Source of the DNA: Dipteris shenzhenensis
Lineage: Eukaryota
Assembly (NCBI GenBank): GCA_047967505.1
Contig: CM106538.1
Direction: 5' to 3' (one strand)
DNA length: 64,000 nt
Shown here: positions 3 through 28,389 of the stretch, piece after piece
Position numbering within the stretch: the stretch's first letter is position 1
Layout of the letters: every line of letters starts with the position of its first letter
Notes under the pieces: model-generated
What the model saw: only the letters and a program-made list of their open reading frames with translations
What the model was told of the DNA's origin: nothing
Database searches by the model: none
Made by a program: the position numbers and the translations under genes

Positions 3-596
3 CCATCTCCGGTGTTTCACAGAGATGATGCAGAAATGCCTGCTAGAGCTCCATGGGTCCCTCAGCATGTATTTGATATTTTAAGTGCACTAGTTCTCAC
101 TATTCATTACATGCACTAACACAATGTCCCGCATAATGATTTGCATGCGCAAAACATTATGCTACACTTCTTGGAGTCATTTGAGGAGGTGTATTTGGGC
201 ATTTGTGATTGGGGAATGATGACCCCATGCAGCACTAAAAAGCACTATCCCGCATTACTCAGTGACAGCCCCAACACTATGCGAAGCTCCATTGCTAGGT
301 TTCATCATGTTGCTCCAGAGTGCCTTTGCACCAATCCCCCACCTTTCGATGTTGCATAGGATGTGTATGCCATGTCTCATCACATCTTGAAAATCTTGGA
401 CATTTGTGCACCATCGCCAAGTACGGGGCCCGCAGAAGCTCTAATCGGGCATGTACGATGATTTGCAATTCAAGGAAAGTCAATCGAACCGAATAGATGT
501 CCGAGTACTGCAGATTTTTATGGGATTTTTGACATTGCTCCAAGATGTGGTATACAGCTCAGTCCAAACCAAGGACTTAGAGCAGCCAATGACTGA
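3..596 (+). pseudogene. Protein kinase catalytic domain, C-terminal lobe; pseudogene with in-frame stops, 5' part outside the window
   Basis: One frame reads ...IHYMH*HNVPHNDLHAQNIMLHF...LGICDWG...HVAPECL...DVA*DVYAMS...EPNRCPS. This gives the HxDxxxxN catalytic loop, a DFG-equivalent (DWG), APE, and subdomain IX and XI-like motifs in the correct order. Stops include 117-119 and 357-359. Confidence 0.8.
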
Positions 597-699
597 GTCT
601 TTCTTGGACGCCAAGATGTAACATGAGTCAATCATGGAACTTGTAACATTTTTAGTTTTATATATCATCCACTCTATTGTTCAAACAGTTTGTATATTT

Positions 700-970
700 A
701 CAATGACATGATAAATGATGCGATAAGTAATATTTAAATATTGTTTGTATAAGTAAATGATGCAATAAAAATGATGATCCAATTGTCAAATATGATAAAT
801 GGTGCAATAATTAATGTTTAAATATTATTTGTATAACTGAATGTTGTGATAAAAATGATGGTCCAATTTTAAAATATGATAAATGATGCGACAATAAATA
901 TCTAGGTATTATTTGTATAGGTTTAATATTATTTAATTGTTTAATATTGTTTAAATATTTAATATTATTT
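700..970. repeat. AT-rich degenerate tandem repeat
   Basis: Recurrent atgataaatgatgc...aatattgtttgtata blocks near 708, 793 and 876. Confidence 0.6.
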
Positions 971-1529
971 GTGGTTACAAATTGATTTTATCTTGTTGTC
1001 ATTTTTTAGGCTAAGTATGAGCATGGAGGGAGATAACTTAGAGAACATTCTCTCACAAGATCCTCCCTAACCAGAGCAACCTCCAGTCCAAGAGGGCCCA
1101 CAAGGTGTTTTTGTGCCTCAAGAGGCTGATTTAGCAGACCAACTAAATCACGCTGATGCTCAGGCTATCTTACAAGTGCAAAGAGAGATGCTGGGCAAAG
1201 AGGGACTAGGTATTTTTGCTGCTGGTCCAGTGGATGACGATACCATGCAAGGCGACAACACATATGCTTTGAAAAACACGTTCAAGCATGCAATATATTA
1301 ATTATCATTCAATCACGCTCTTTTAAAATAATTCACATTCTATTGAAAGAATATTAAATATTCATTCAAAAGAAAGTGTAAGAGTGAGTCAACTCTTCTA
1401 ATAACTTTTAAACTTTCAATTCCTACACTTTAAAACTATGTATTCTTTCACATTCTATTGAAAGAATATTACATATTCATTCAAAGAAAGTGTGAGAATA
1501 CAAACACAATAAAATCATATTTCTCACAT

Positions 1530-10449: not shown

Positions 10450-13400
10450 TGTAATGCCAAAAACTGATAATTTTTTATTTGGCATTGGTATTGTTTTTCT
10501 CTATGTTTGATAAGAGTTTGAATTTCAAGTGATAGCCTAGCGGCTCTCACTTATTTCTATTTTCTAAGATATTGTATGGAATTGAGAGCATGAGTGGAAT
10601 GGATCATTGTAAATACCATGTGTATGAATTATAAATACCTTGGTATGGGGTGAGAGTTATTTGTGTATGGGATATTATCAGGTTTTTTAGAAAATAGGAA
10701 GAGTGGGTCATATAAAGATGTCCATGTGTTCCAATGATATAAGAGAGATCACATGCCAAGCATGTGGAGGAGTGTGGAGTCAAGAGGAATCATATCTTCA
10801 TGTGTTGCGAAATATTACTTCTACTTCATAGATGCTGGAGAGAGCACAAACCATATGTGGTTCTTTCCATTCTCCCATAAGAACTTTAAAATGAATCAAA
10901 GTGGAGATAATTTTAGAGTCTGGAAAGCTTGTTGAATTCAAGGGAGCCTTTCATGCAAAGACCTCTTAGTTGATGACACAATGTGGGATAAGCCACAACT
11001 CTTCTTTATCAATGAAACATCAAGTGCTGATGTTTGTCACCTCATTGATAGAATATTATGTACCACCATTGGTAAAGCATGATTATGTAATAGTGACTTT
11101 GGAAGGAGAAGACGACATGGCTTGAGTACCATGAGTCACTCCATTATTACTTCTCTTTGGCACAAACCGGCTTGCTCAGATTATGGCCTCTGTTGATCTT
11201 TTCCTTCTCCCTATGCTTGAGTACAACATCACTTGCAATGTTACCATCTTCATTCTCATCTAAGGGAGGAAAGTATGGTGTGGTATCTTGGCATAAAAGC
11301 TTCTTTTTAATGTCCCTTTCTCAATGATAAATATCTTTGTCACTCAGTTCAAAAGCAGTGGGAAGTAAAGAGGTGCATGAAGTTTATTACCCCCAACTTC
11401 ATGTCACATCAAACGTTTGGTATTGGATTCATCCCACCTTACTAAATGGTCTCATGTGTACTTTATTGCATGTTATGTCTAGTATAGGCATGTGTTTTCT
11501 GATGTGATAAAGAAGATGCTTGGAAAAACTCTGTTAGAAGAGATTGCAACCTGTTTAAGAGAACTAGAAGATTATGAAGGTAATGCTCAAGCTATTCGCA
11601 CGGTCATCATGATCATATCCTTTATGTTTGCACTCTTGAATATGTTGGCAAATCAACAATGCCATCAGCACGCACAATGATAGATTGGGGATTATTTTAT
11701 GCACTGACAGCTTGGTGTGAAGAAGAGTTGAGTCTTTGGGTAGATTTTGACGATAGCAGTGGAGTGGTGATTATCAATGCTTTCAACTTCTTTTGCTATG
11801 AAAATGATGAAGAGTACAATATCTTGAAGCTATTATGTGCACTACCAAGTGTGAGAAGGGTGATTCTTAAATGGATGTATACACAATGTTTTCATGGTGC
11901 TGGTTGGTCACTTTTTTTTGAAGATTTTATTGAGGATCACATTGTGGTGTGTTTTCAACAAGTGGTTCTGCATAATAAGTTGGTCTTGGTATACTAAGGC
12001 TCTGTGGGATCTTGTTTGGATCTTGTTTGGGATATTATTTGGATCTTGGTGTTTCCTTTTTGTGTTTCGTCATGGTAAAGATTCCAGTGTTTTGAGGGAC
12101 CCAAGGGGAAGACCTGGAGTCTTATCTTTGGGATTTTGTTCAAGGATGTCAGCTTTTTGGATGGTCCATGAAGGATCGAGCAGAGATTTTGCCTAATTTT
12201 CTTGAAGGTGTAGCCTTGAGTTGGCATGAGGCCTTGTCGGACTCTACCGAGGAGGACTGGGACCAAGTGGTGGCTGCAATGAAGTAGAGATTTGGGGCAG
12301 TGGAGTCACCAAATTCTTTGATGTTACAGTTGGACCGGTTCTATCAAGGAGAGGGTGAGATGGTCTCTATGTTGGCAATCTGATATGAAACTCTATGGAC
12401 AAAGTATGAAAGGGCAACTTTGCGAGCTATGGCATATGCATCATCGGCCCCTCAAAGTCTTATAGGGATGGAGCACTTAAAGATGAGCGAATTTGTTATA
12501 GCTTTGGAGCCTCATCTTCGCTCAAAAGTAATGAGTAACGATCCAACAACATACATGGAGGCACTTCACATTGCGACCAAGAAAGAAGCTTCTCTAAAGA
12601 TCGAATCCTCTTTTGTGTCTTCAACAGCTTCAACTTCTAAGGGGAGGTAATGGGCACTCCTCAAGTACCAAAGTCCTCTGAGTTGATCATAATATCTCCC
12701 AATTGATGGCAGAGTTTATTGCATTTGGTTAATGCATGACAACCTAGAGCACCAAAGAGTGAGGATAGGCCTCGAGATAACAGTGGGGTCACTTGCTATG
12801 AATGTAATGAAAAAGGTCATTATCGCCCTGACTGTCCTAGATTGAGAAAGAAAGAAGAAAAACAAGTATCCTTGTTAGAAGCTTCTTTAGGGGATGAGGA
12901 AAGAGAGGTAATGATGGCTAAACGGGGGCGTGGTAAAGCAAAAGAAGAAGAAGAAAGCAAGGAAGAAGTAGATGAGGAACATCAGGAAGAGGAATGCCAT
13001 AGTAAGAAAAAGAAGGCATCTAGAAGGAGAATTAGCCAATCAAATTTTCCTTTAGGCCAAGGCATTGGAAGCTATGACTTGTTGTCTGACCTTAAAGAAA
13101 AGGAAGCTCATATCACCTTTGGTCAATTACTTGCTTTGTCTCCAAAACTACGGAAAGAATGGGGAAAGCTAGCAAGCACAAGAGTGTCAAAGAAGAAAAG
13201 TGCCATTCCTATTGTTCAAAATGTAGATATAGAGGTTCATGATGATGTACCTGTGGTTGATGTGATCATTGATGGTCAAGTGATTTCTAATCTTTACATT
13301 GATGGAGGTGCATCGATTAATGTCATGAGTGAGAAGACCATGATAGATGCTGATTTAAAATACTCTAGTACTACCTCTCCCTATCGCATCAAATTGGCTA

Positions 13401-16400
13401 ACAACACTAGGGTAAAGACCTTGGGAGTTGTGAAGAATCTAGAAGTAGATGTATGTGGAATTTCTGTGTCGATCGACTACTTTTCAAGTGATCCCTACCA
13501 AGCCCGATGCATGTTCCTATCTTTTGATTTTGGGAAGGCCTTGGCTATGCAAGGTCAAGGCTATTCAAAAGTGGGATACTGGAGAATTGATTTTATAGGG
13601 AAATGTTGATAAGAAGGTGCACTACAACATCAAAAGTCACAAAAAGAAAGTTGTCAAGTTGGAGTCTTCAACATCAGAGAGTTCGAGAGCTCTGACTTAA
13701 CTGATGAAGAAGAAGAGACAGGGTGTAGCTCCGAGAAGTCCAGCTCAGAGGGTGAGGTGGAAGGAGTGGCCTTTGGTCTTTGTCTTGCAGGATGAGTTAG
13801 GAGGGAACAAGTTGGTGGTACAAGAAGATCTTGTAGAACACTTCATGTGGAGGATGTGGAGCACACTAAATGACACCAATGCAATGAATAGCTACTTGGT
13901 GATTCTCTATTAGGTAGTGAGAAGCTCTAGTACTTGGATATGTTAGATGATTTTCCATATCTCTTTGCAACAAGCTAGCTTATTCACAGGTTCAACCAGT
14001 CTCTCTTGTGGAGCACAAGATTGAGTTGAAGCTAGAAAGCAAGCCAGTTGTGCAATTCTTAAGGTGATTGGGAGTGATCCAAGATGAGGCACTAAAGAAA
14101 GAGGTAACACAACTATTTGAGGCAAGATTCTCATCTTTCTTGTTGATGATTCAGAATGGATATCTCCTGTAGTTGTCACACCAAAGAAAGGAAATAAGTG
14201 ACAGGTATGTGTGGACTCTTTTCTTTGAATGCATGCACTAAGAGGAATCATTTTCCTTTGCCATTCCAAGATGAAATACTAGACCAAGTAGTAGGGCATG
14301 AGATGTATTCTGTATGTGATGGGTATTCTGAGTACTTTCAAATTCGCATTCAGGAGGAAGATCAAAAGAAGACATCATTTGTCACACCTTGGGGAGTTTT
14401 TGCTTATAGAGTCATGCCTTTCAACTTAACCAATGCACCAGCTACATTTCAAAGGTTCATGATTCAAGTCCTTAAGCCTTACTTGGGAAAGTTCATAAGG
14501 GTTTTTTTGGATGATTTTTGCATTTATTCTCAATGCATAGATCACATGGAGAAGTTAAAGATGGCCTTAGCTAGGATTGATGAAGCAAAAGGGTGTCTAA
14601 ATCCTAGCAACTATCATTTGGCTCAAACAAAAGTAGCCTTGTTGGGGCATATTGTGTTTGAAGAAGGCATGCAAATGGATCCTGACAAGGTTTAAGCAAT
14701 CATGGCATTGCCAAGTCCTGAGAGTGTCACTGGTGTTCACAGAATTCTAGGAAAGAGCAAGTATTATCAACATTTTTGTGATGATTTCATAGAGATAGTG
14801 CATCCCATGAATTTCTTTCCAATGGGGTGTGGAGCAACAAAGTCTATTCTAGGAAAGAGCAAGTATTATCAACATTTTTGTTGGCAAGAAAAGGAATTTC
14901 TTTCCAATGGGGTGTGGAGCAACAAAGTCTATTCAGCAACTTAAGGAGGCCATGAGTAAGGGCCCAATATTGAAGCCCCCTAATTGGTCTCAAGACTTTT
15001 ATATAAATCTAAGTGTGTCTTTGCATTCAGCTCATGCTATGTTGCTACAAAAAGGAGAGGTAGGTAGAATGCAACCCATCTATTATGCCAACTGATAGCG
15101 TACAGAGGTGGAAACAAGGTATGAAGAAATGGAGCAGCAAGCTCTCTCTTTGGTGTTTTCAGTTAGAAAGTTTCGCTCCTATTTATTACCTCGACCATTT
15201 TTCTTCCTTACCTCTCAATCTATATTAGCATATCTAGTTTGCAAGCCTAATCCTGGGGGGAGATTTACAAAATGGTTATCAAAGCCTCAAGATTTCTCTT
15301 TCTCTTTTATCACTAAAAATACCACTAGGTCCACTATGGCAGATTTGCTCACAGGGGACGAGAGGATGTAGGAGAAGAAAAGAAATGTAAGGAGAGCATT
15401 AAAGATGAAAGGGATACACCACCAACAGCTTTTGTTTTGTATTTTGATGGGCCTTTTAGTCCTTCATGCCAACAAGGAGCCACGAGGATAGTCTTGATGA
15501 ATTCTGAAGGTCAAGAGGTGTGGGCAAGAGGACAAAAGCTTCCAGGTATCACAACTAATAATGCAGATGAGTATAATGCTTTGATTCTTGGTTTAGAGGG
15601 TTATCTTCAAAGTCAAGTTAAAGAATTGGAAGTAAGAGGACATTCTCAGCTTATTATAAAGAAAATGCAAGGGCATTAAAAGACAAGAAGTCCTCATTTG
15701 AAGGAGCTTAATCAAAAGGCTATGGCATTATGTGGTCATTTTGCAAGTTTGTTCATATAAACAGAAAAGAAAATCAAAGGGCAGATGAGTTAGCTACTCA
15801 AGACATTGTAGTACAAGACAAGGAGGTGGTTTCTTTGGTAGACACTGGATCGCCAGAATTGCAAGATGTTCAACAATATGTGGAAGAAGGCATGTTTCCT
15901 CGAGGGTTAATTCCACAACAGAAGTAGAGATTGGTAAGGAAGGCTTGTCCCTATACTATTGTTGATGACATTCTTTATAAATTGGGAAAAGATAGGGTGC
16001 TCAGTCAGGTGGTCCATCCCATGGAGACTAGAAGAATCCTAGAAATGTATCATGAATGCTCTGGTCATTTTGCTTAAGCAAGCACAACTAGGAGAATTCT
16101 TAATGCAGGTTACTTTTGGCCATGCCTCCATAAGGATGTACATGAATGGTGTTGAAGTTATAAAGTGTGCCAAAAGTTTGGAACCTGATTCGTGGGCCCT
16201 TGAAGCCTATTCAAGCATATGGACCATTTGAGAGGTCGGTGGGACCACTCCGTCGCTCATCTCAGAGCAAACATTATTTATTGGTGGCCACAAATTATGC
16301 AACTCGATGGGCAGAGGCCAAGGCCATAGTCAATAGCAAGGCAAGCACGATTGCAAAATTTCACTTTGATCAAATTTGTTCATGCTTTGGTTGTCCTTTG

Positions 16401-19012
16401 GAAATTCTCACTGATGGAGAAACCTCTTTTAGAAATGAACTAATTGAAGATGTGGTGCATAAGCTAAAGATAAATCATAGCATGTCCACGCCATACTATC
16501 CCCAATGTAATGGCTTGGCTAAGAGAACAAATGGATTGTTGTGCAATTCAATGGCAAAGCTTGTAGACACCAAGAAAAGGCATTGGGATACGCACTTGGC
16601 AGAAGTCTTCTGGGTTTACAGAACCACATACAAGCTAGCTATTGGGTTTACACCATTCCAACTAGTGCATGGAATAGAAGCCATTTTGCCCATTGAATTG
16701 GAGATACATAGTCTTTGCACTATTGTTGCAAGAAAAGGACAGGAGGATGCCTATGCTCAATGCTTGGTACAGCTAGAAGCCTTGGATGAATGCAGATTAT
16801 AGGCCTTATAAATCTTGGAAGCTTCTCAAAAAAGGTGCAAGACCCGTTTTGCCACCAAATTATGCAAGAAGAAAGATATTGCAGAAGGAGATTTGGTCAT
16901 GAGATTTGATAGCTGTTTGGACAAGTTACTAGACAAAAAGTTTATCAGCCAATGGGAGGGACCATATCGAGTCAAGAAGAAGTTCACCAATGGAACCTAT
17001 CAGCTTGAGGATGTTGATGGCATGGTGATACCCGGATGCATCAATGAGTATTGCCTTAAATTCTTCTCTGCTTAACCACCTTGAGGGCCAGCAAAACTCT
17101 CGGCAACTAGAGAGGATCTGCTGGGGGGGAAAGATGTGACGCCAAAATTTGATATTTTTTAATTTAGCATTGGTATTGTTTTTCTCTATGTTTGATAAGA
17201 GTTTGAATTTCAAGTGATAGCCTAGTGGCTCTTACTTATTTCTATTTTCTAAGATATTGTATGGGATTGAGAGGATGAGTGGAATGGATCATTGTAAATA
17301 CCATGTGTATGAATGATGAATACCTTAGTATGGGATGAGAGTTATTTGTGTATGGGATATTATGGGATTTTGTAGAAAAAAGGAAGAGAGTCATATAAAG
17401 AAGTGGGCTCATGTCCATGTGTTCCAATGATATAAGAGAGATCACATGCCAAGCATGTGGAAGGCATATGGAGGAGTGTGGACTAAAGAAGAATCCTTCT
17501 AGAATTCCTATGTGGAATAAGGAGGATGTGGACATATGGAAAAGAGAGGGTCCCTATGGGCTCCATGTGGGGAGACTCTTGAATTTCTCAATATTTTAAG
17601 AGTCTTGAGCATATTTTGATGGGACACATGGCAAGAGTAGCCAAAAAGGACATGGATGGTGACATATGGGCTTATGTGATTGATGGGGAAAGGAATCTAC
17701 AGGCAGCAATTGTAAATGGGTGGAGGGTGACTAAATCTCTATAAAAGGAGCCCTCCTCTCCCTTGCTCAACATCTCTTCCACCATTAGGCCTCATGTTGC
17801 TGTAGCTCTAGTCTCCTCAAATCTCTTCCATGAGCCTTCTCTCCCTCTTGTAGATATTCTCTAATGTAGACTCTTGAGTCGATCTCTCTCTAGTTCATTC
17901 TCTCTCTATGAGTAGTCTTGGAGCTTCCGCTCCCTCTTGTATGTATGAAACCTCTTCTTCTCCCTTGTGGTTGTAGTATTTTGAGTTGCATTGGATGGAC
18001 CCCCACTCTATTGGCAATGAAGATCACTTCGTATTCGCTCTCCTGAGTCTCTCTTCCCTTTTCTTTGTTTCAAAGCCTTAAAAGTTCTTTCTATTCAGCT
18101 GCTCATTGTTGCAAACACATGGTCCATCCATTTCACAAGCCACCAAGGGAGTTACTTACCCTCTTCTAGGTGAAATCTATGAGTGGTGGATCGTTGATGA
18201 AGGTGGAGTCTTGAGGGAGCATCTTGCTCATGCGAAATTAGCATGGGTGGAGGGCAGTTTTTATGACAGTTTGACCCCCTATTAGTGTTTTGCTCATAAC
18301 TTTCTGCTCAGTAGTCCAATTTTGATGAAACTTATATCAACTCTAAGCTCTCTTCAAGACACATGGCTCTATGTGATTAGATAATACTACTGCAAACAGT
18401 TATGAGTCTCTGTGTCTGACAGTCTGTTTTCATGACAATTTTTACCTGCATCTAGTAAACTGCCCAAAACTTTTTGGCCACTTATTTTTTTCTTACGAAA
18501 CATATACAGCATGAAGCCCGCATCTCTATATGTGTTTGAATCTTTAATATCACGTCTTTATTGAAAATTATAGGCCTCTGTGTCTAATACAATTTGTAGA
18601 GTGTTTTAAGCTAATTGTAAAGGTATCTATGAAGGAGGTGCAATGTTTCCCTAGAACCTGCCCATCCGACCCAATCAGCCCCTTGAAACTCCTCGATATA
18701 TATCAGTTCATGTCATGTTGAGCCGCAAGATCTTCTTTCAATAACATATTGCTCTTCTCTTTGGCACAGACCGGCTTGCTGAGATTATGGCCTCTGCTGA
18801 TCCTTTCCTTCTCCCTATGCTTGAGTACAACATCACTTGGGATGTTACCATCTTCATTCTCATCTAAGGGAGGAAAGTATGGTGTGGTATCTTGGCATAA
18901 AAGCTTCTTTTTAATTTCCCTTTCTCAATCATAAATATCTTTGTCACTCAATTCAAAAGCAGTAGGAAGTGAAGAGGTGCGTGAAGTTTATTACCTCCAA
19001 CTTCATGTCACA
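10450..19012 (+). mobile_element. Full-length but decayed Ty3/Gypsy element of non-chromoviral OTA/Tat type, with an additional RNase H
   Basis: 5' LTR 10450-11408 and 3' LTR 17135-19012 (TGTGAC...GTCACA termini), PPT ggggggaaaga at ~17123-17134. It splits host integrase B between ..GDWV and LMFN.. Confidence 0.88.
12140..17075 (+). pseudogene. gag-pol: capsid, CCHC knuckle, protease, RT, RNase H, additional archaeal-type RNase H, integrase; many stops and frameshifts
   Basis: CYECNEKGHYRPDC (~12795); IDGGASINVM protease; CDGYSEYFQI and FLDDF in RT; additional RNase H YFDG...TNNADEYNALILGL...LEVRGHSQLII (15437-15679); integrase STPYYPQCNG and WEGPY. Confidence 0.9.
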
Positions 19013-19254: not shown

Positions 19255-19256
19255 TA

Positions 19257-19283
19257 CGGGAGAATTGGGGTCTCCAAAGGGCC
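19257..19283 (+). repeat. Left terminal inverted repeat
   Basis: Matches the reverse complement of 28128-28154 with 2 mismatches. Confidence 0.88.
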
Positions 19284-22719: not shown

Positions 22720-23281
22720 AGCCTTATTGTATATAATTTTTATTTTATATGAATATAGATATACTTTTTATACAGTGTCCCATTTTGTGTTCTTTTACAA
22801 AATTTATTTTATACTGTCATTGTATTTTGTAACTTTAATTATTGCTGGCATTAATATTTTCATTCACTATTCTATTCAAAAGCATGTTACTAGATAAATT
22901 TTTGTGCTATAATGGTCATTTCTGAGCAATCCAGTAAGAATCTCACCGTGGCGCAAAAGGCAAATGGGTTCAACATCATGCGGGGAGCTTAGAAATGTCA
23001 AAACCCGATCAAATAGGCTCCATATATGCCATACTAGGTTTTGACATTTTTGAGCTCCCCACACGATGCCAAACACATTTGCCTTCTGCGCCATGGCAAA
23101 AAAACATCATTTGACCACTCTAATTCACATTGAACTTGCATAAACTAATGGAAAGCATCACGTAACATGTATAATAACATGGGAATAGTAATAGAACATA
23201 AAAATATATTTTACTCATTGGCCTCAAAGGGTAGAGATTTACAAAATGATTCAGGTTACACCAAATGAACTTAAACAACAT

Positions 23282-24375
23282 CTAGGGCCCAAGGGAGGAA
23301 TCGGAGTAGATGCACTTGGCAAGTGCAAGGTCCTTGTCCATCACTATTACTCTTTTGGCATGGATAGCACATAAGTTCTCATCTTCAAAAAGACCTACTG
23401 TCATCTACTCCGTTACCTCTTGAATTGCTCCATAGCACCTGAAGTGAAGCGCACATCATCCTTGTAATGTTGTGCTATTTCACGTACAACATGTTGGAAG
23501 GGTGCATGAGAAATGAGATTGTCCACAATGGTTTGGAACTTGCGGATCTCTTGAAGTGCCTTGACGCTTGATTTTTTGCACCTCTTAATCTTTGGGGGAC
23601 CCTGCACTGGCCTCTGGACATGGCTGCTTGTCTGCTTTGAACTTTTTTTGCCTCTCCTCCCTTGCAACCGCCTCTTCATACTCCTCTTCTTGTGTCTGGT
23701 GGGTCCTTCAAGGTGGCTTGTTGTGCTTAGGGGTCTTCTTTGTCCTTGGTCCCTTTTCCTTTTGATGAGGCTGTGAGATAGTAGGCTAAGGCTCTTGCTC
23801 AGCTTGTACTAGAGGCTCCTCATATATGACAATCTCGAGGCGCAGAGGGTTGATGGTGCTCTTCCATGCAGTCTGCTTGGTTGGAGGATTGGGGCCAATA
23901 TAATCTGTGAGCCTGCCAAATACTTCCTCTTATTGTGGCCCCTTTAATCTCTCCATCTCCTCTCCTTGCCTTTCTTGCTCCCCTTGTTGGTCTAGATGTT
24001 CCATGCTAGGACCCCACGAAGGAGGGAGGGGCAGTTGATCACGATTGATTGGACTATTTTGTCCCTCTTGGGAGACCTCTCTACTTCCACAATTAGTTGT
24101 GTGGAAGGACTAAGAGGACCCCTGATCGTGCTTGGATGCTTCATCGTGCTGAGATTCCTCATGGTGCTGAGATCCCTCGGATCCCCCATGAGAGTCGGAT
24201 GGTGGGGACTTGCGTTGCTCAAACTCCTAATGATGAGAACCAACTTCAGATCCCTATTGATCATTGCCCTCTTGGCCACTGGGGCTTGCACTGTGTTTGG
24301 AGGCCATGGAGTTGTGAGGAGGAGAGTGGGTAAATGGCGTCCAGTGGGTCTAGTAGTTTGTTTAACTCATGCCAT
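23282..24375 (-). pseudogene. Histone H3-like gene with a greatly extended N-terminal tail (stops and frameshifts)
   Basis: Starts MA*VKQTTRPTG (cf. MARTKQTARKSTG). Histone fold reads [10 protein letters not shown]...[66 protein letters not shown] at 23300-23570. Confidence 0.9.
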
Positions 24376-24671
24376 AGAAATGAGGGATTTTAGGGTTTTG
24401 AAGTGCTTTATATAGTCTTTTTTAAAGCACTTTAGGGTTTTTCTTTTAAATTAGGGTTTTTTGAGTGCACCCCCTCCCCCCAGTCTTTTGTCGGCCAGTT
24501 TGGTAATACTTAATCTTCGCCACCCTCCCTCCCAACCCCCTCACCCCTTTGCCCTGCCATGTCGCACATGCAATTCTGCAATTTCCAAGCAAATTTGCGA
24601 ATTTTGGAATCTATAATTGACTCCAAACATTGTTAACTTTATTCATTAAACATTTTACACTTGGGGTACTC

Positions 24672-27442
24672 TTAGGACCCAACGCCTCCCCTATCTGACT
24701 CTATGTTGCAACCAAAGTGCAACCCCTTGGCTCTTGTTGAGGACTTCCAAGTAGCACATCTCCTTGTCTTCTTGACATGTTGAACTGCTTTTGCAAGACT
24801 TGAGACCCCAACCTTATTGTTCTTGAGAGTCTTGGCCTCTAGACATGTATAAAACTAGTTAAAAATTTCATGTAGTGCATTGCTTCATGCGATACCACCC
24901 CCATGCCTTATATTCTTAAAGTATGCTGGCTTTGCTTTGTAGTGCAATTTCTCCATTCCTTGAGTATTCCAAATGGATAGAGGGCCCCATTGCTCCACAA
25001 ACCATGGTGCATGTGTGTAAAGAATATGCTTTAAAGAAAAACATCGTATTAGAAACAAAAACTGACTCAAGTTTAAAGCATAAAATTTCAACCTAAGGAG
25101 GATTACCACATAATGTGTAATATGTGACTCCCCCCATGCTTCTACCATCAATGATATGAATTCTCCCAATGCTGTCCTGAATCTCTCATAATAAAACTCA
25201 TCTATTTAACCTTGTCTAAGCAACTTAATAAATGCATCAAGCTTTGTCCACAGTTTAACTCTCAAAGTAGCAATTTGTGGATATGAAGCTTGATTTGTAG
25301 TGCACTCACACAAATCTTTCTAGTACTCCCAATCTAGGGTGCTTTGAGCCAATGTATGTTTTTCTTTATTAGCATTGTGGTTGGACATGTACCTCCTTGC
25401 CTTTCCTCCACCCATGGACACTTTAGCAGGAAGATTTTGTGTCTTTCCTGATTGTTTCTTATCCTGCTTGAGCTTCACATTGCGTTTGTGAAGTCCCATC
25501 AATGAGAGTAGTTATTTAGCCTTTGCAATGCATTGTGCAGATACTTCTTATGGCCTCAAATTCCAAGCATAAACTAGATGGAGATAGAGTAACTTATCAA
25601 GTATACACAGTTCAACATGCAAAATACACATGTGTACCCACTCCAATGGAATTGGTAGAAGGGGGTCCCACTTAGGATCCTTTTTTTGACGATTAGGGGC
25701 TACACTTTGGTTGCAAGAAAGGATGCTAGTATCACAACCATACAAGCACTTGAGGGTCTTTAAATCACTAGCCAGATGCCATTCAACTTGATACGTTCCA
25801 TGCCCATCCACTATTAATGTGTGCCCTACCTCTTGTCTTTGAATAATCGACGGGATGCCGGTTCTCTTCAAAACCCACTTCAATGTCTCATGGCACTCCT
25901 TTGTGGTCTCAAAGGCTGCAAGCCACCATATGTCCTTACCCTGCTCAACTTCCTCATCCCCTTGAGCAAAACGCAAGGCATCGTTCATAATCCAAATGCT
26001 CACCCTCTCTATCTTGTGCTCTTTTACCAACTGAGCTTCATCCATTTTTATAACAAATACTAGCTTGCCATCTATACAATGGAAGAGAAATATAGTAAGG
26101 ATATAGAAATGAGAAGAAATAAAGTTGAATGTGAAGAGGGAATTTCTCTTACCTTCTTCTCTCATCCCATAGAATTTGACCATGGCTCTCTACAAATTCT
26201 CTGCATCTGCATAAACATTATTCAAAGCATTCATCTCAAACATTTGGATGCCAGATTTTCTTTTACTCTTCCAAGTCATTGTGCCACTTACACAATGGTA
26301 TCCTCCAAGACTTTCTCTAGCACATTGGTTTGTTTCTTGATGTGCAAGCCTTACAGACCATGGTGTTGGCAATGGCATTGTAGATATCTTATACTTTTCC
26401 TCCATAGCAGACTTGAAAATTTTAAAAGTAGAGTTGTAAGCTTCACGACTTACACCAGCAACATCACAAGCTCCAAGCACCTCCTTTGCTTGCACGAGGC
26501 CCTTGAAGTCCTTCATTACCTCTCTAGCAACTTGTTCACATAGCCCTTTTTGTCTAGGGTCCTTTAAAACTTCAATGACATCACTTGGCTTTATTAAACT
26601 TCTTAGATCATATGAAGGATCACTATCATCCATTTCCATTATTCCCATCACATCCTCCATGAAATTCCTAAAGTAGAGTATAAATGAGTCTTAGTGGAAA
26701 CAATGCAACACCACAAATATTTTGAAGTAAAAAATTTCATTGAAAATTTGGGGAACTAACCTTGCAGCCCATATTCTCCTCTTTTGGGCACCACTATTGG
26801 TTGACAATGCATCCATAGATTGCAATTGTCTTTTCCTCTCCTTCAATTTCAAAGGTGTTCCCTTCAACTTTGTACTCGTTCTATCGACTTCTCTTGTTCC
26901 TTCTCCATAGCACGTTGAACTTGGCCATAGATAGACCTTTCCAAATCTTGTTTGCTTTCAGCGAGCTTCTGGATTGATTCTTCCAATTCCTGTCGCTCTA
27001 AGTCTAGTGCACGTGTTTTGTCACTGAGTTCTTTGTTTTGCAATTGGAGATCCTGCATACTATTATGCATTGCCACAATAGTAATATTTCCCAAATGTGC
27101 AAGTTCTTCTACTTGGGCTCTCTACACCTCGCTTGCTTGCATAGCCAATGTCTGAGAATGGTTCAATCAATTTCAATAACTAAGCAATCCAGCATGTCCA
27201 TTGCCAACAAACTAAACAACATCATGCACTGTATGAAAAGGAGGATTCTTTAGGGTGGCAGGGTCTAAAGGATACAAGTTTCCATCCACCCAAAGGTCAA
27301 GATGCTTCTTCCCTTGCAATCAAAGGCTATGGAGCACACTTTGAGGCATTCCACTATATCCCAAATGGTGTGTGCTTGCATATTCTACCTCTAGTTGTAG
27401 GTTCACATGGTACTTGTTGGATATGTCCTCCAATGGTGCCAT
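24672..27442 (-). pseudogene. RAG1/Transib-like DDE transposase, spliced (about 3 introns), with stops and frameshifts
   Basis: In order: SREAYNS...LPTPWSVRLA; FVIKMD (D at 26040-26042); KECHETLKWVL; HLASDLK (D at 25764-25766); CILHVEL; SMGGGKARRYM; ITHYV|HILYTHAPWFVEQWGPLSIWNTQGMEKLH (E at 24951-24953). Introns at about 26670-26760, 26072-26151 and 25029-25106. Confidence 0.75.
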
Positions 27443-27499
27443 GAGTACTCAAAGAGAGGTATCAGTGATGCAAGCTAAAATGTAGGGGAGAGCTAGCAA

Positions 27500-27955
27500 A
27501 GATGGAGCAGTGAGAGGGAGAGAGTAGCAAGGAAGAGGGAGGAGGAGAAGCAGATCAAGGCAAGAGGAAGAGGAGAAGGAGAGTAGGGTGATGGTGTAGA
27601 AGGGAGGGAAGGAGCTACTGCAAAAGGGAGGAGGAGGGGAGAGATGCTGCAGGAGGGAGGAGGAGGGGAGAGATTTCGCAAGAGGGAGGAGCAGAGGAGA
27701 GGGAGCTTGGGCAGCTAGAGAAGGAGGGGAGAGGAAGGAGGGAGGAGGAGCCAGAAGGAGGAGGAGGAGGGGAGGGGGAGGAGGGAGGAAGAGGAGCAAG
27801 ATGGAGGAGGGGAGAGGAGGAGGGAGGGGGAGGGAGAGGGAGAGGGAGAGGGAGGAGGAGGGAGGGGGGTGGAGGGAGGGAGGGAGGGAGGGAGGGAGGA
27901 GGGGGAGGGAGAGAGAGAGAGGGAGGGAGAGAGAGAGAGAGGGAGGGAGGGAGAT
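27500..27955. repeat. GA-rich low-complexity tract
   Basis: Runs of GGA/GAG/GGGA. Confidence 0.9.
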
Positions 27956-28127
27956 TCAAAATTTGAAATTCAAATTTCAAAAAGTGTCCCCCTCCCCTCA
28001 TTGATGGGGGGAGAGGTGGGCTCAAATGTGGGCTTAACCCATGTAGGTTGGGCTAGTTAGGCCTCTTTGGGACCCTCCAAGCCCCTTGCATAAGCCCACT
28101 AAGCACTCCCTAATCCATTCCTTATGA

Positions 28128-28154
28128 GGCCCTTTTGAGACCCCAATTCTCCCC
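28128..28154 (-). repeat. Right terminal inverted repeat
   Basis: ggcccttttgagaccccaattctcccc followed by TA. Confidence 0.88.
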
Positions 28155-28389
28155 TAATGGATCTAACTTCGGACCATTTGGTCGGACATCGGACTTTTGG
28201 AGATCCAATGTTTGGGTACATTGGGCTTTAAAAGAAGAAATCATGCAAGAAAGTTATGACAGTGACACTTCCCACATGCAAGCATTCTATCACATGTAGA
28301 AATCAGCATTTCACTTTGCTCACAATAGTCATTCTAAATTCCTCATCGTCCTTCATGTGTTTCATCTCTACTATCCCCATTGGTTTCTC

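Follow-up and report, generated by a model that had tools for sequence, protein, structure and literature searches.

The minus strand of the 64-kb window, by which we mean the whole stretch of DNA analyzed, carries a decayed, intronless histone H3 variant gene (23282 to 24375), and upstream of its histone fold lies a stretch of H3 tail text, P-TKQTAWKST (23855 to 23884, minus strand), that corresponds to H3 residues 3 to 11 with R8 replaced by W (codon TGG). The reading that we favor, with a probability of roughly 0.55, is that this motif is a vestigial H3 cassette in a pseudogenized H3 variant gene and that it was ancestrally internal to a tail of ~265 residues.

Identity of the H3 tail motif

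Direct reading of the minus strand from 23884 to 23855 gives CCA ACC AAG CAG ACT GCA TGG AAG AGC ACC, which is exactly the text reported by the first-pass annotation. The motif is contained in a 47-aa stop-to-stop open reading frame (ORF) on the minus strand (23786 to 23929). Compared with canonical H3, for which the first 136 residues of P0005 served as the reference, eight of the nine residues at positions 3 to 11 are identical, a span that includes K4, K9, S10, and T11. The BLOSUM score of the motif is not significant by itself (tblastn, E = 5.1, 18.1 bits). When identity was used as the measure, there was one match of at least 8/9 to any 9-mer of H3(1-136) in the window outside the histone fold, and none of 300 dinucleotide-preserving shuffles contained one. 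A single C>T step at a CpG separates the W codon, TGG, from CGG. The earlier proposal that an R>W change arose through CGG>TGG is plausible, as it calls for a single CpG transition in a region with a CpG observed/expected ratio (o/e) of 0.26. On these sequence grounds, we conclude that the motif is a real H3(3-11)-derived cassette and a relic of a histone H3 tail.

Structure and decay of the H3 variant gene

The extent of the gene was defined by three-frame translation, matches to the Pfam Histone family, and tblastn searches with P0015, P0018, and H3. It runs from an ATG at 24375 to a stop codon at 23282 to 23284, or ~364 codons if the lesions are read through, and has no intron between the proximal tail and the stop codon. 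The H3-like start (24334 to 24375, minus strand) reads MA*VKQTTRPTGRH and aligns locally with H3 residues 1 to 23 at a raw score of 34, MA*VKQTTR-PTG being the counterpart of H3 1 to 13. The TGA at codon 3 (24367 to 24369) is one CpG transition away from CGA. The first-pass annotation had placed the motif ~500 bp downstream of MA*VKQTTR, and this offset holds, with the ATG at 24375 lying 491 nt upstream of the motif. Ahead of the start codon, a promoter-like stretch (24390 to 24459, minus strand) contains three AAACCCTAA boxes (24451 to 24459, 24432 to 24440, and 24390 to 24398), which we take to be plant telo-boxes, and one TATATAAAG (24406 to 24414), presumably a TATA box.

The histone fold is preserved in two pieces. 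The first half, from alphaN to the start of alpha2 (23431 to 23601, minus strand), lies in the ORF at 23413 to 23808 and matches Pfam PF00125 with 30.6 bits against a cut-off of 26.4; its best matches among solved structures are all H3, including H3.2 (PDB 5ong_A, E = 2.2e-10). The second half (23285 to 23428, minus strand) lies past a 1-nt frameshift, largely in the piece at 23282 to 23404, and is interrupted by a TAG (23405 to 23407). It matches PF00125 with 28.4 bits against the same cut-off of 26.4 and is 65% identical to H3 residues 92 to 131 by tblastn. A PF00125 fold above the cut-off, combined with an H3-type N-terminal tail text, places the gene in the histone H3 family.

At least eight stops and at least two frameshifts break the gene. 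The stops in the reading path are the TGA at codon 3, the TAGs at 24256, 24229, 24112, and 23788, the TAA at 23932, the TGA at 23710, and the TAG in the second half of the fold. A single C>T step from CAG, CAA, or CGA would account for every one of them, including all seven in the motif frame. Two frameshifts are well supported, at ~23594 to 23598 and ~23429 to 23431, and a further one probably lies near the start. The first of these falls in a run of C (23594 to 23598, minus strand), where the path leaves the motif frame and continues in that of a 22-residue text that matches the relatives described below, which points to an indel. The CpG o/e of the gene is 0.26, with an excess of TpG and CpA, similar to the window as a whole (0.28). 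Methylated CpG decays by deamination of 5-methylcytosine, and the low CpG o/e, the TpG and CpA excess, and the C>T-type stops together suggest that this is a methylated, silenced sequence. No uninterrupted frame connects the start codon to the stop codon. The gene is a pseudogene, and because it is decayed and nonfunctional, the motif within it is without function here.

A processed CENH3 retrocopy was considered as an origin for the gene and dropped, as there is no poly(A) tract after the stop codon, promoter-like boxes lie upstream, and the longer loop 1 that marks CenH3 is absent. A 151-bp MITE-like foldback (22946 to 23096), with 60-nt arms that are 83% complementary and a 31-nt loop, is found ~190 bp 3' of the histone stop codon.

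Nearest relatives and the frame of the motif

The start-codon-frame read-through was used as the query in a HMMER scan of 1.84 billion representative proteins, which returned 1,407 H3-like proteins at an E value of ≤0.001. The top matches were multi-H3 fusion artifacts, and the only specific relatives were P0015 (117 aa, from a 759-bp contig) and P0018 (132 aa, from a 577-bp contig), both unnamed singleton ORFs from ENA. These two are the nearest relatives of the window gene, with which they have in common a 14-residue proximal tail block (23621 to 23662, minus strand, located by tblastn in the motif frame) and the alphaN text. The fold of P0015 also contains a frameshift, close to the position of that in the window gene. 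Both proteins differ from the window gene in starting with Met 13 to 23 residues before the shared KKF; they have no long tail and do not reach the motif region.

The frame of the motif is the frame of this proximal block, which lies ~150 nt downstream; no frameshift is needed to join them, and two stops stand between. The 22-residue text downstream of the block is read one frame over, according to tblastn with P0015 and P0018. By this comparison, we consider the motif to share the reading frame of the proximal tail, as established by the relatives. The window fold grouped as sister to P0018 (SH-aLRT, 95) when 102 distinct folds were placed in a quick tree. The two folds are identical at 56 of 93 positions; the corresponding counts are 49/84 for canonical H3 and 50/86 for P0154, a long-tailed protein that is discussed below. 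Homologous proteins were found neither for the 131-aa ORF, among proteins of greater length, nor for the read-through tail. A related-locus search of genome contigs and viral contigs returned pattern matches and zero relatives, and no second copy of the gene was found in the 64-kb window.

Evidence for and against a long ancestral tail

The distal part of the tail, which separates the start from the motif (23885 to 24333, minus strand), was probably once coding in the motif frame, as judged by base periodicity. A three-base periodicity of constant phase, A rich and T poor at the second codon position of the motif frame, extends from ~24360 to ~23520, and the flanks on either side lack it (P = 0.35 and 0.45). 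In the segment from 24333 to 23885, the periodicity is significant (chi2 = 34.1, P = 6e-6) and persists at P = 0.0036 after removal of an 18-nt tandem repeat of 3.2 units, whose period is a multiple of 3 (24121 to 24178, minus strand; Tandem Repeats Finder). Without the repeat, the subsegment from 24215 to 23893 is not significantly periodic (P = 0.27). Upstream of the motif, the motif frame has stops at 6 of 163 codons, a density not lower than that in shuffled sequences (7.7 ± 2.6), and the start-codon frame has 3 stops over the same 163 codons. A tail of ~265 aa was most likely coding in the past, a view that periodicity favors and that neither stop density nor the relatives back.

If the tail was coding, the motif would have stood ~163 codons past the H3-like start codon and ~104 codons before the alphaN helix, and the ancestral protein would have had a hydrophilic tail of ~265 residues with the H3 cassette in its interior. 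In a living ancestor, the cassette could have acted as an H3-like substrate or reader site, for example in K9 methylation and S10 phosphorylation, on a variant nucleosome. In this reading, silencing and C>T decay turned R8 into W, codon 3 into TGA, and Gln and Arg codons into stops; indels also disrupted the frame.

The alternative that survives best, which we consider unlikely and nonetheless take seriously, is that two H3 variant fragments are juxtaposed here and that the motif is the original N terminus of the downstream copy, with its first codons lost. The upstream ATG, MA*VKQTTR, and a C-terminus-like text would in that case form an internally deleted tandem copy, and the tail would be partly intergenic. 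The C-terminus-like text is AKRAMINRDLKLVLIIRS (24223 to 24276, minus strand), which occurs in the start-codon frame 19 codons after MA*VKQTTRPTGRH and is similar to the helix at the C terminus of P0018 (raw score, 41; tblastn, E = 1.8). Either an internally deleted gene copy left this text behind or the resemblance is due to chance. Two juxtaposed fragments would also fit the lack of a long tail in P0015 and P0018, the weak periodicity between 24215 and 23893, and a stop density there that does not favor the motif frame. However, neither an ATG nor Ala-Arg codons precede the motif, where the three codons just 5' encode N-P-P. The start-codon frame stays open for ~75 codons beyond the supposed C terminus, and the phase of the periodicity is unchanged across the supposed junction. 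Furthermore, the two halves share no DNA similarity, their best score being reached by 14 of 200 shuffles, and self-comparison of the gene halves at the DNA and protein levels detected no duplication linking the two H3-like N-terminal texts. A single decayed gene with the cassette inside its former tail remains our preferred reading.

A possible transposon around the gene

A repeat search identified a pair of 29-nt inverted repeats with a left arm at 19255 to 19283 (plus strand) and a right arm at 28128 to 28156 (minus strand). The arms are 93% complementary, lie 8,844 nt apart, and bracket ~8.9 kb around the gene. Two occurrences of the 26-nt core of the repeat were counted in the window, and none of 100 shuffles contained it. 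Immediately outside both arms, only TA is shared, and no duplication of 3, 8, or 9 nt was seen. The bracketed 8.9 kb contains the histone gene, a chain of decayed ORFs located 5' of it on its own strand (24888 to 26690, minus strand), and further unassigned ORFs at 20.5 to 22.0 kb. The ESM Atlas gives a lead on the nature of the chain, as one decayed ORF had feature scores of 0.92 to 0.95 to clusters of RAG1 RNase-H and Transposase_21. Pfam (E ≤ 10) and PDB sequence searches with the transposase-like ORFs returned nothing beyond chance matches, and the AlphaFold model of the read-through ORF at 25551 to 26690 was unusable (mean pLDDT, 36.2). The decayed ORFs at 24888 to 26690 may be the remnant of a transposase family for which there is no Pfam model. 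Given the inverted-repeat pair around the gene, a transposon-borne histone gene is possible but unproven.

Several other features of the region were recorded. Weaker similarity between the two arms extends ~100 nt inward. A GA-rich low-complexity tract of ~500 bp composed of GGGAG and GAGG units (27450 to 27960) lies just inside the right arm, and similar GA-rich tracts occur at ~33.2, 52.6, and 57.3 to 57.7 kb. The window as a whole resembles land plant nuclear DNA, with decayed pieces of copia- and gypsy-type retrotransposons, DUF4283, and a PPR ORF. A Gypsy-type LTR retrotransposon with protease, RT, RNase H, and integrase (10450 to 19012, plus strand) has direct repeats at 10450 to 11408 and 17135 to 19012 that are 87 to 95% identical, and it ends 240 bp before the left arm. 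The sole long open gene in the window is a PLS-type PPR ORF of 753 aa (49824 to 52082, minus strand), which is intact and has an E motif.

We regard as improbable the larger claim that the window holds a dead copy of an 8.9-kb inverted-repeat DNA transposon from a land plant, one that encodes an H3 variant of its own with two N-terminal cassettes, the start text and the internal TKQTARKST. If it were true, living copies would load a self-encoded nucleosome variant on the chromatin of the element or would divert K9/S10 enzymes from that chromatin.

Also improbable is a chimeric capture, in which a mobile element joined a promoter and first codons, a tail fragment, and a variant fold, making the motif a captured piece of canonical H3 that was never functional. 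DNA transposons such as Pack-MULEs capture genes or gene fragments, and the gene here is placed between 29-nt inverted repeats 8.9 kb apart and adjoins decayed ORFs for which the Atlas gave a transposase-like lead. Synonymous differences between the two H3-like N-terminal texts also indicate that they are not recent copies of each other. A captured fragment is harder to reconcile with H3 similarity that spans just ~27 to 40 nt, with the conservation of proximal tail and fold shared with P0018, which implies a long functional history, and with searches that found neither a target site duplication nor a Pfam transposase.

The first-pass annotation had suggested that a transposon encodes a histone mimic or decoy with duplicated K4/K9 epitopes that would titrate H3K9 writers and readers or dock the BAH protein of the element itself. 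We judge this to be very improbable. The inverted-repeat pair that brackets the gene, the presence of two H3 N-terminal-like texts in one reading path, and the apparent selection on an embedded TARKST in an analogous CenH3-like family (see below) are all in keeping with it. The window copy is dead, however, and with at least eight in-path stops and at least two frameshifts, it cannot be a decoy or mimic; an intact or expressed copy is not known. Docking to a BAH protein of the element did not find support either. The bracketed 8.9 kb contains no BAH domain, and Pfam detected none in 150 of the 152 ORFs of at least 80 aa in the window. The sole BAH trace is an EBS/SHL-type fragment (56841 to 57200, minus strand) that was missed by Pfam and recovered by phmmer against PDB 5z8n_A, "Chromatin remodeling protein EBS" (E = 3.6e-6). 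This EBS-like fragment lies 33 kb away from the histone gene and outside the inverted repeats, with retrotransposon pieces and the PPR gene in between. The ORF that contains the fragment has one exon-like piece present twice, beside an (ER)n repeat.

A chance resemblance within noncoding DNA is barely credible: the nine-residue match reaches only E = 5.1 in tblastn and further chance matches to H3 of 17 to 18 bits were found elsewhere in the window, but 8/9 identity arose in 0 of 300 shuffles and the motif shares its strand and frame with the H3-like fold that it just precedes.

Significance of a probable internal H3 cassette

The literature was searched for transposon-encoded H3 of plants, for transposons with H3 variants that have a long N-terminal tail, and for the CENH3 tails of bryophytes, ferns, and gymnosperms. 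In the searchable portion of this literature, which lies mostly outside subscription journals, an H3 variant with an internal H3 tail cassette is not described, which is not proof of novelty. Among the matches listed there, QTARKS was paired with CENH3 only in apicomplexan histones, and the alphaN text had no match. The alphaN and TARKST texts likewise had no match in the text retrieved from two supplement files of PMC11687628.

If intact paralogues exist, they would represent an H3 variant of plants whose tail is very long and keeps a K4/K9/S10 cassette internally. An animal-type family of CenH3-like proteins has the same design, with TARKST as its single invariant tail element. By analogy, this suggests that variant nucleosomes could stay visible to enzymes that act on the H3 tail while the remaining tail evolves freely. 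If a transposon does carry the gene, this would be an unusual example of a histone on a mobile element.

Comparison with known systems

Non-histone proteins that mimic histone tails carry a short ARKS/T-like H3 epitope outside the normal H3 N terminus. The epitope in the window differs in that it occurs in a true H3 family gene and derives from the H3 tail, and the copy is dead. Captures of the Pack-MULE type resemble the window in the placement of a gene between short inverted repeats and next to decayed ORFs, whereas the window shows no target site duplication beyond TA, no recognized transposase domain, and no second copy.

In canonical H3, the cassette lies ~41 codons before alphaN. In the window gene, the distance is ~104 codons, and N-P-P and ~163 codons precede the cassette. 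R8 of canonical H3 is W in the window, Met-Ala-Arg is absent before the motif, and the window gene is broken. A longer loop 1 than that of H3 is a criterion for CenH3/CENP-A. Loop 1 of the window fold is of H3 length, with a gapless alignment to H3 residues 5 to 90, so that the CenH3 type of loop is lacking. P0018 is one residue longer. A divergent, long N-terminal tail is a further CenH3 trait, one that the putative ~265-codon tail of the window gene may share.

Intact long-tailed proteins were encountered in a profile scan of JGI metagenome contigs, which found two loci. One of these, L001, carries an intact ORF (99 to 1151, plus strand) for P0154, which is 310 aa from its Met and consists, in order, of a short H3-like start, an acidic Ser-rich extension of ~160 aa, ARQTARKST, a basic linker, and the fold. 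The ESM Atlas placed P0154 in generic histone clusters only. A search with the P0154 tail returned 34 proteins (P0154 to P0187), an unnamed family of intact long-tailed CenH3-like proteins. TARKST lies 45 to 61 residues ahead of alphaN in all 14 of the members that span the region. In an alignment of the family, T-A-R-K-S-T and one Pro were the only columns of the whole tail without variation; identity of the members to the first sequence ranged from 43 to 91%. P0177 and P0179 have two ARKST motifs each, and many members begin with X-P-K-K. The transcriptome assembly accession of two members is that of the copepod Neocalanus flemingeri in the data availability statement of PMC6105596, which indicates that the family is of animal type and not of plant type.

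TARKST is the sole invariant stretch of these tails, which suggests that selection can preserve an internal cassette even as the tail around it diverges. By analogy with this family, an internal H3 cassette in a long-tailed H3 variant can be maintained in the same way. The motif ORF ranked first of 2,748 ORF pieces when searched with an HMM of the family tail block, yet its E value was 0.074, and hhalign aligned the window motif with the TARKST block of the family over 12 columns at E = 0.034 and a probability of 1.5%. No tail homology to the family was found beyond the TARKST cassette. Because the similarity is confined to the cassette, we treat the family as an analogy and not as demonstrated kin of the window gene. 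In the fold, the family is no closer to the window gene (50/86) than canonical H3 is (49/84), and the tree gave no supported joining of the two. They have an 11-residue fold-start text in common. The family and, on the long-tail reading, the window gene also share an H3-like start of short length, an extended hydrophilic region, an embedded (K/R)QTARKST, and a basic linker.
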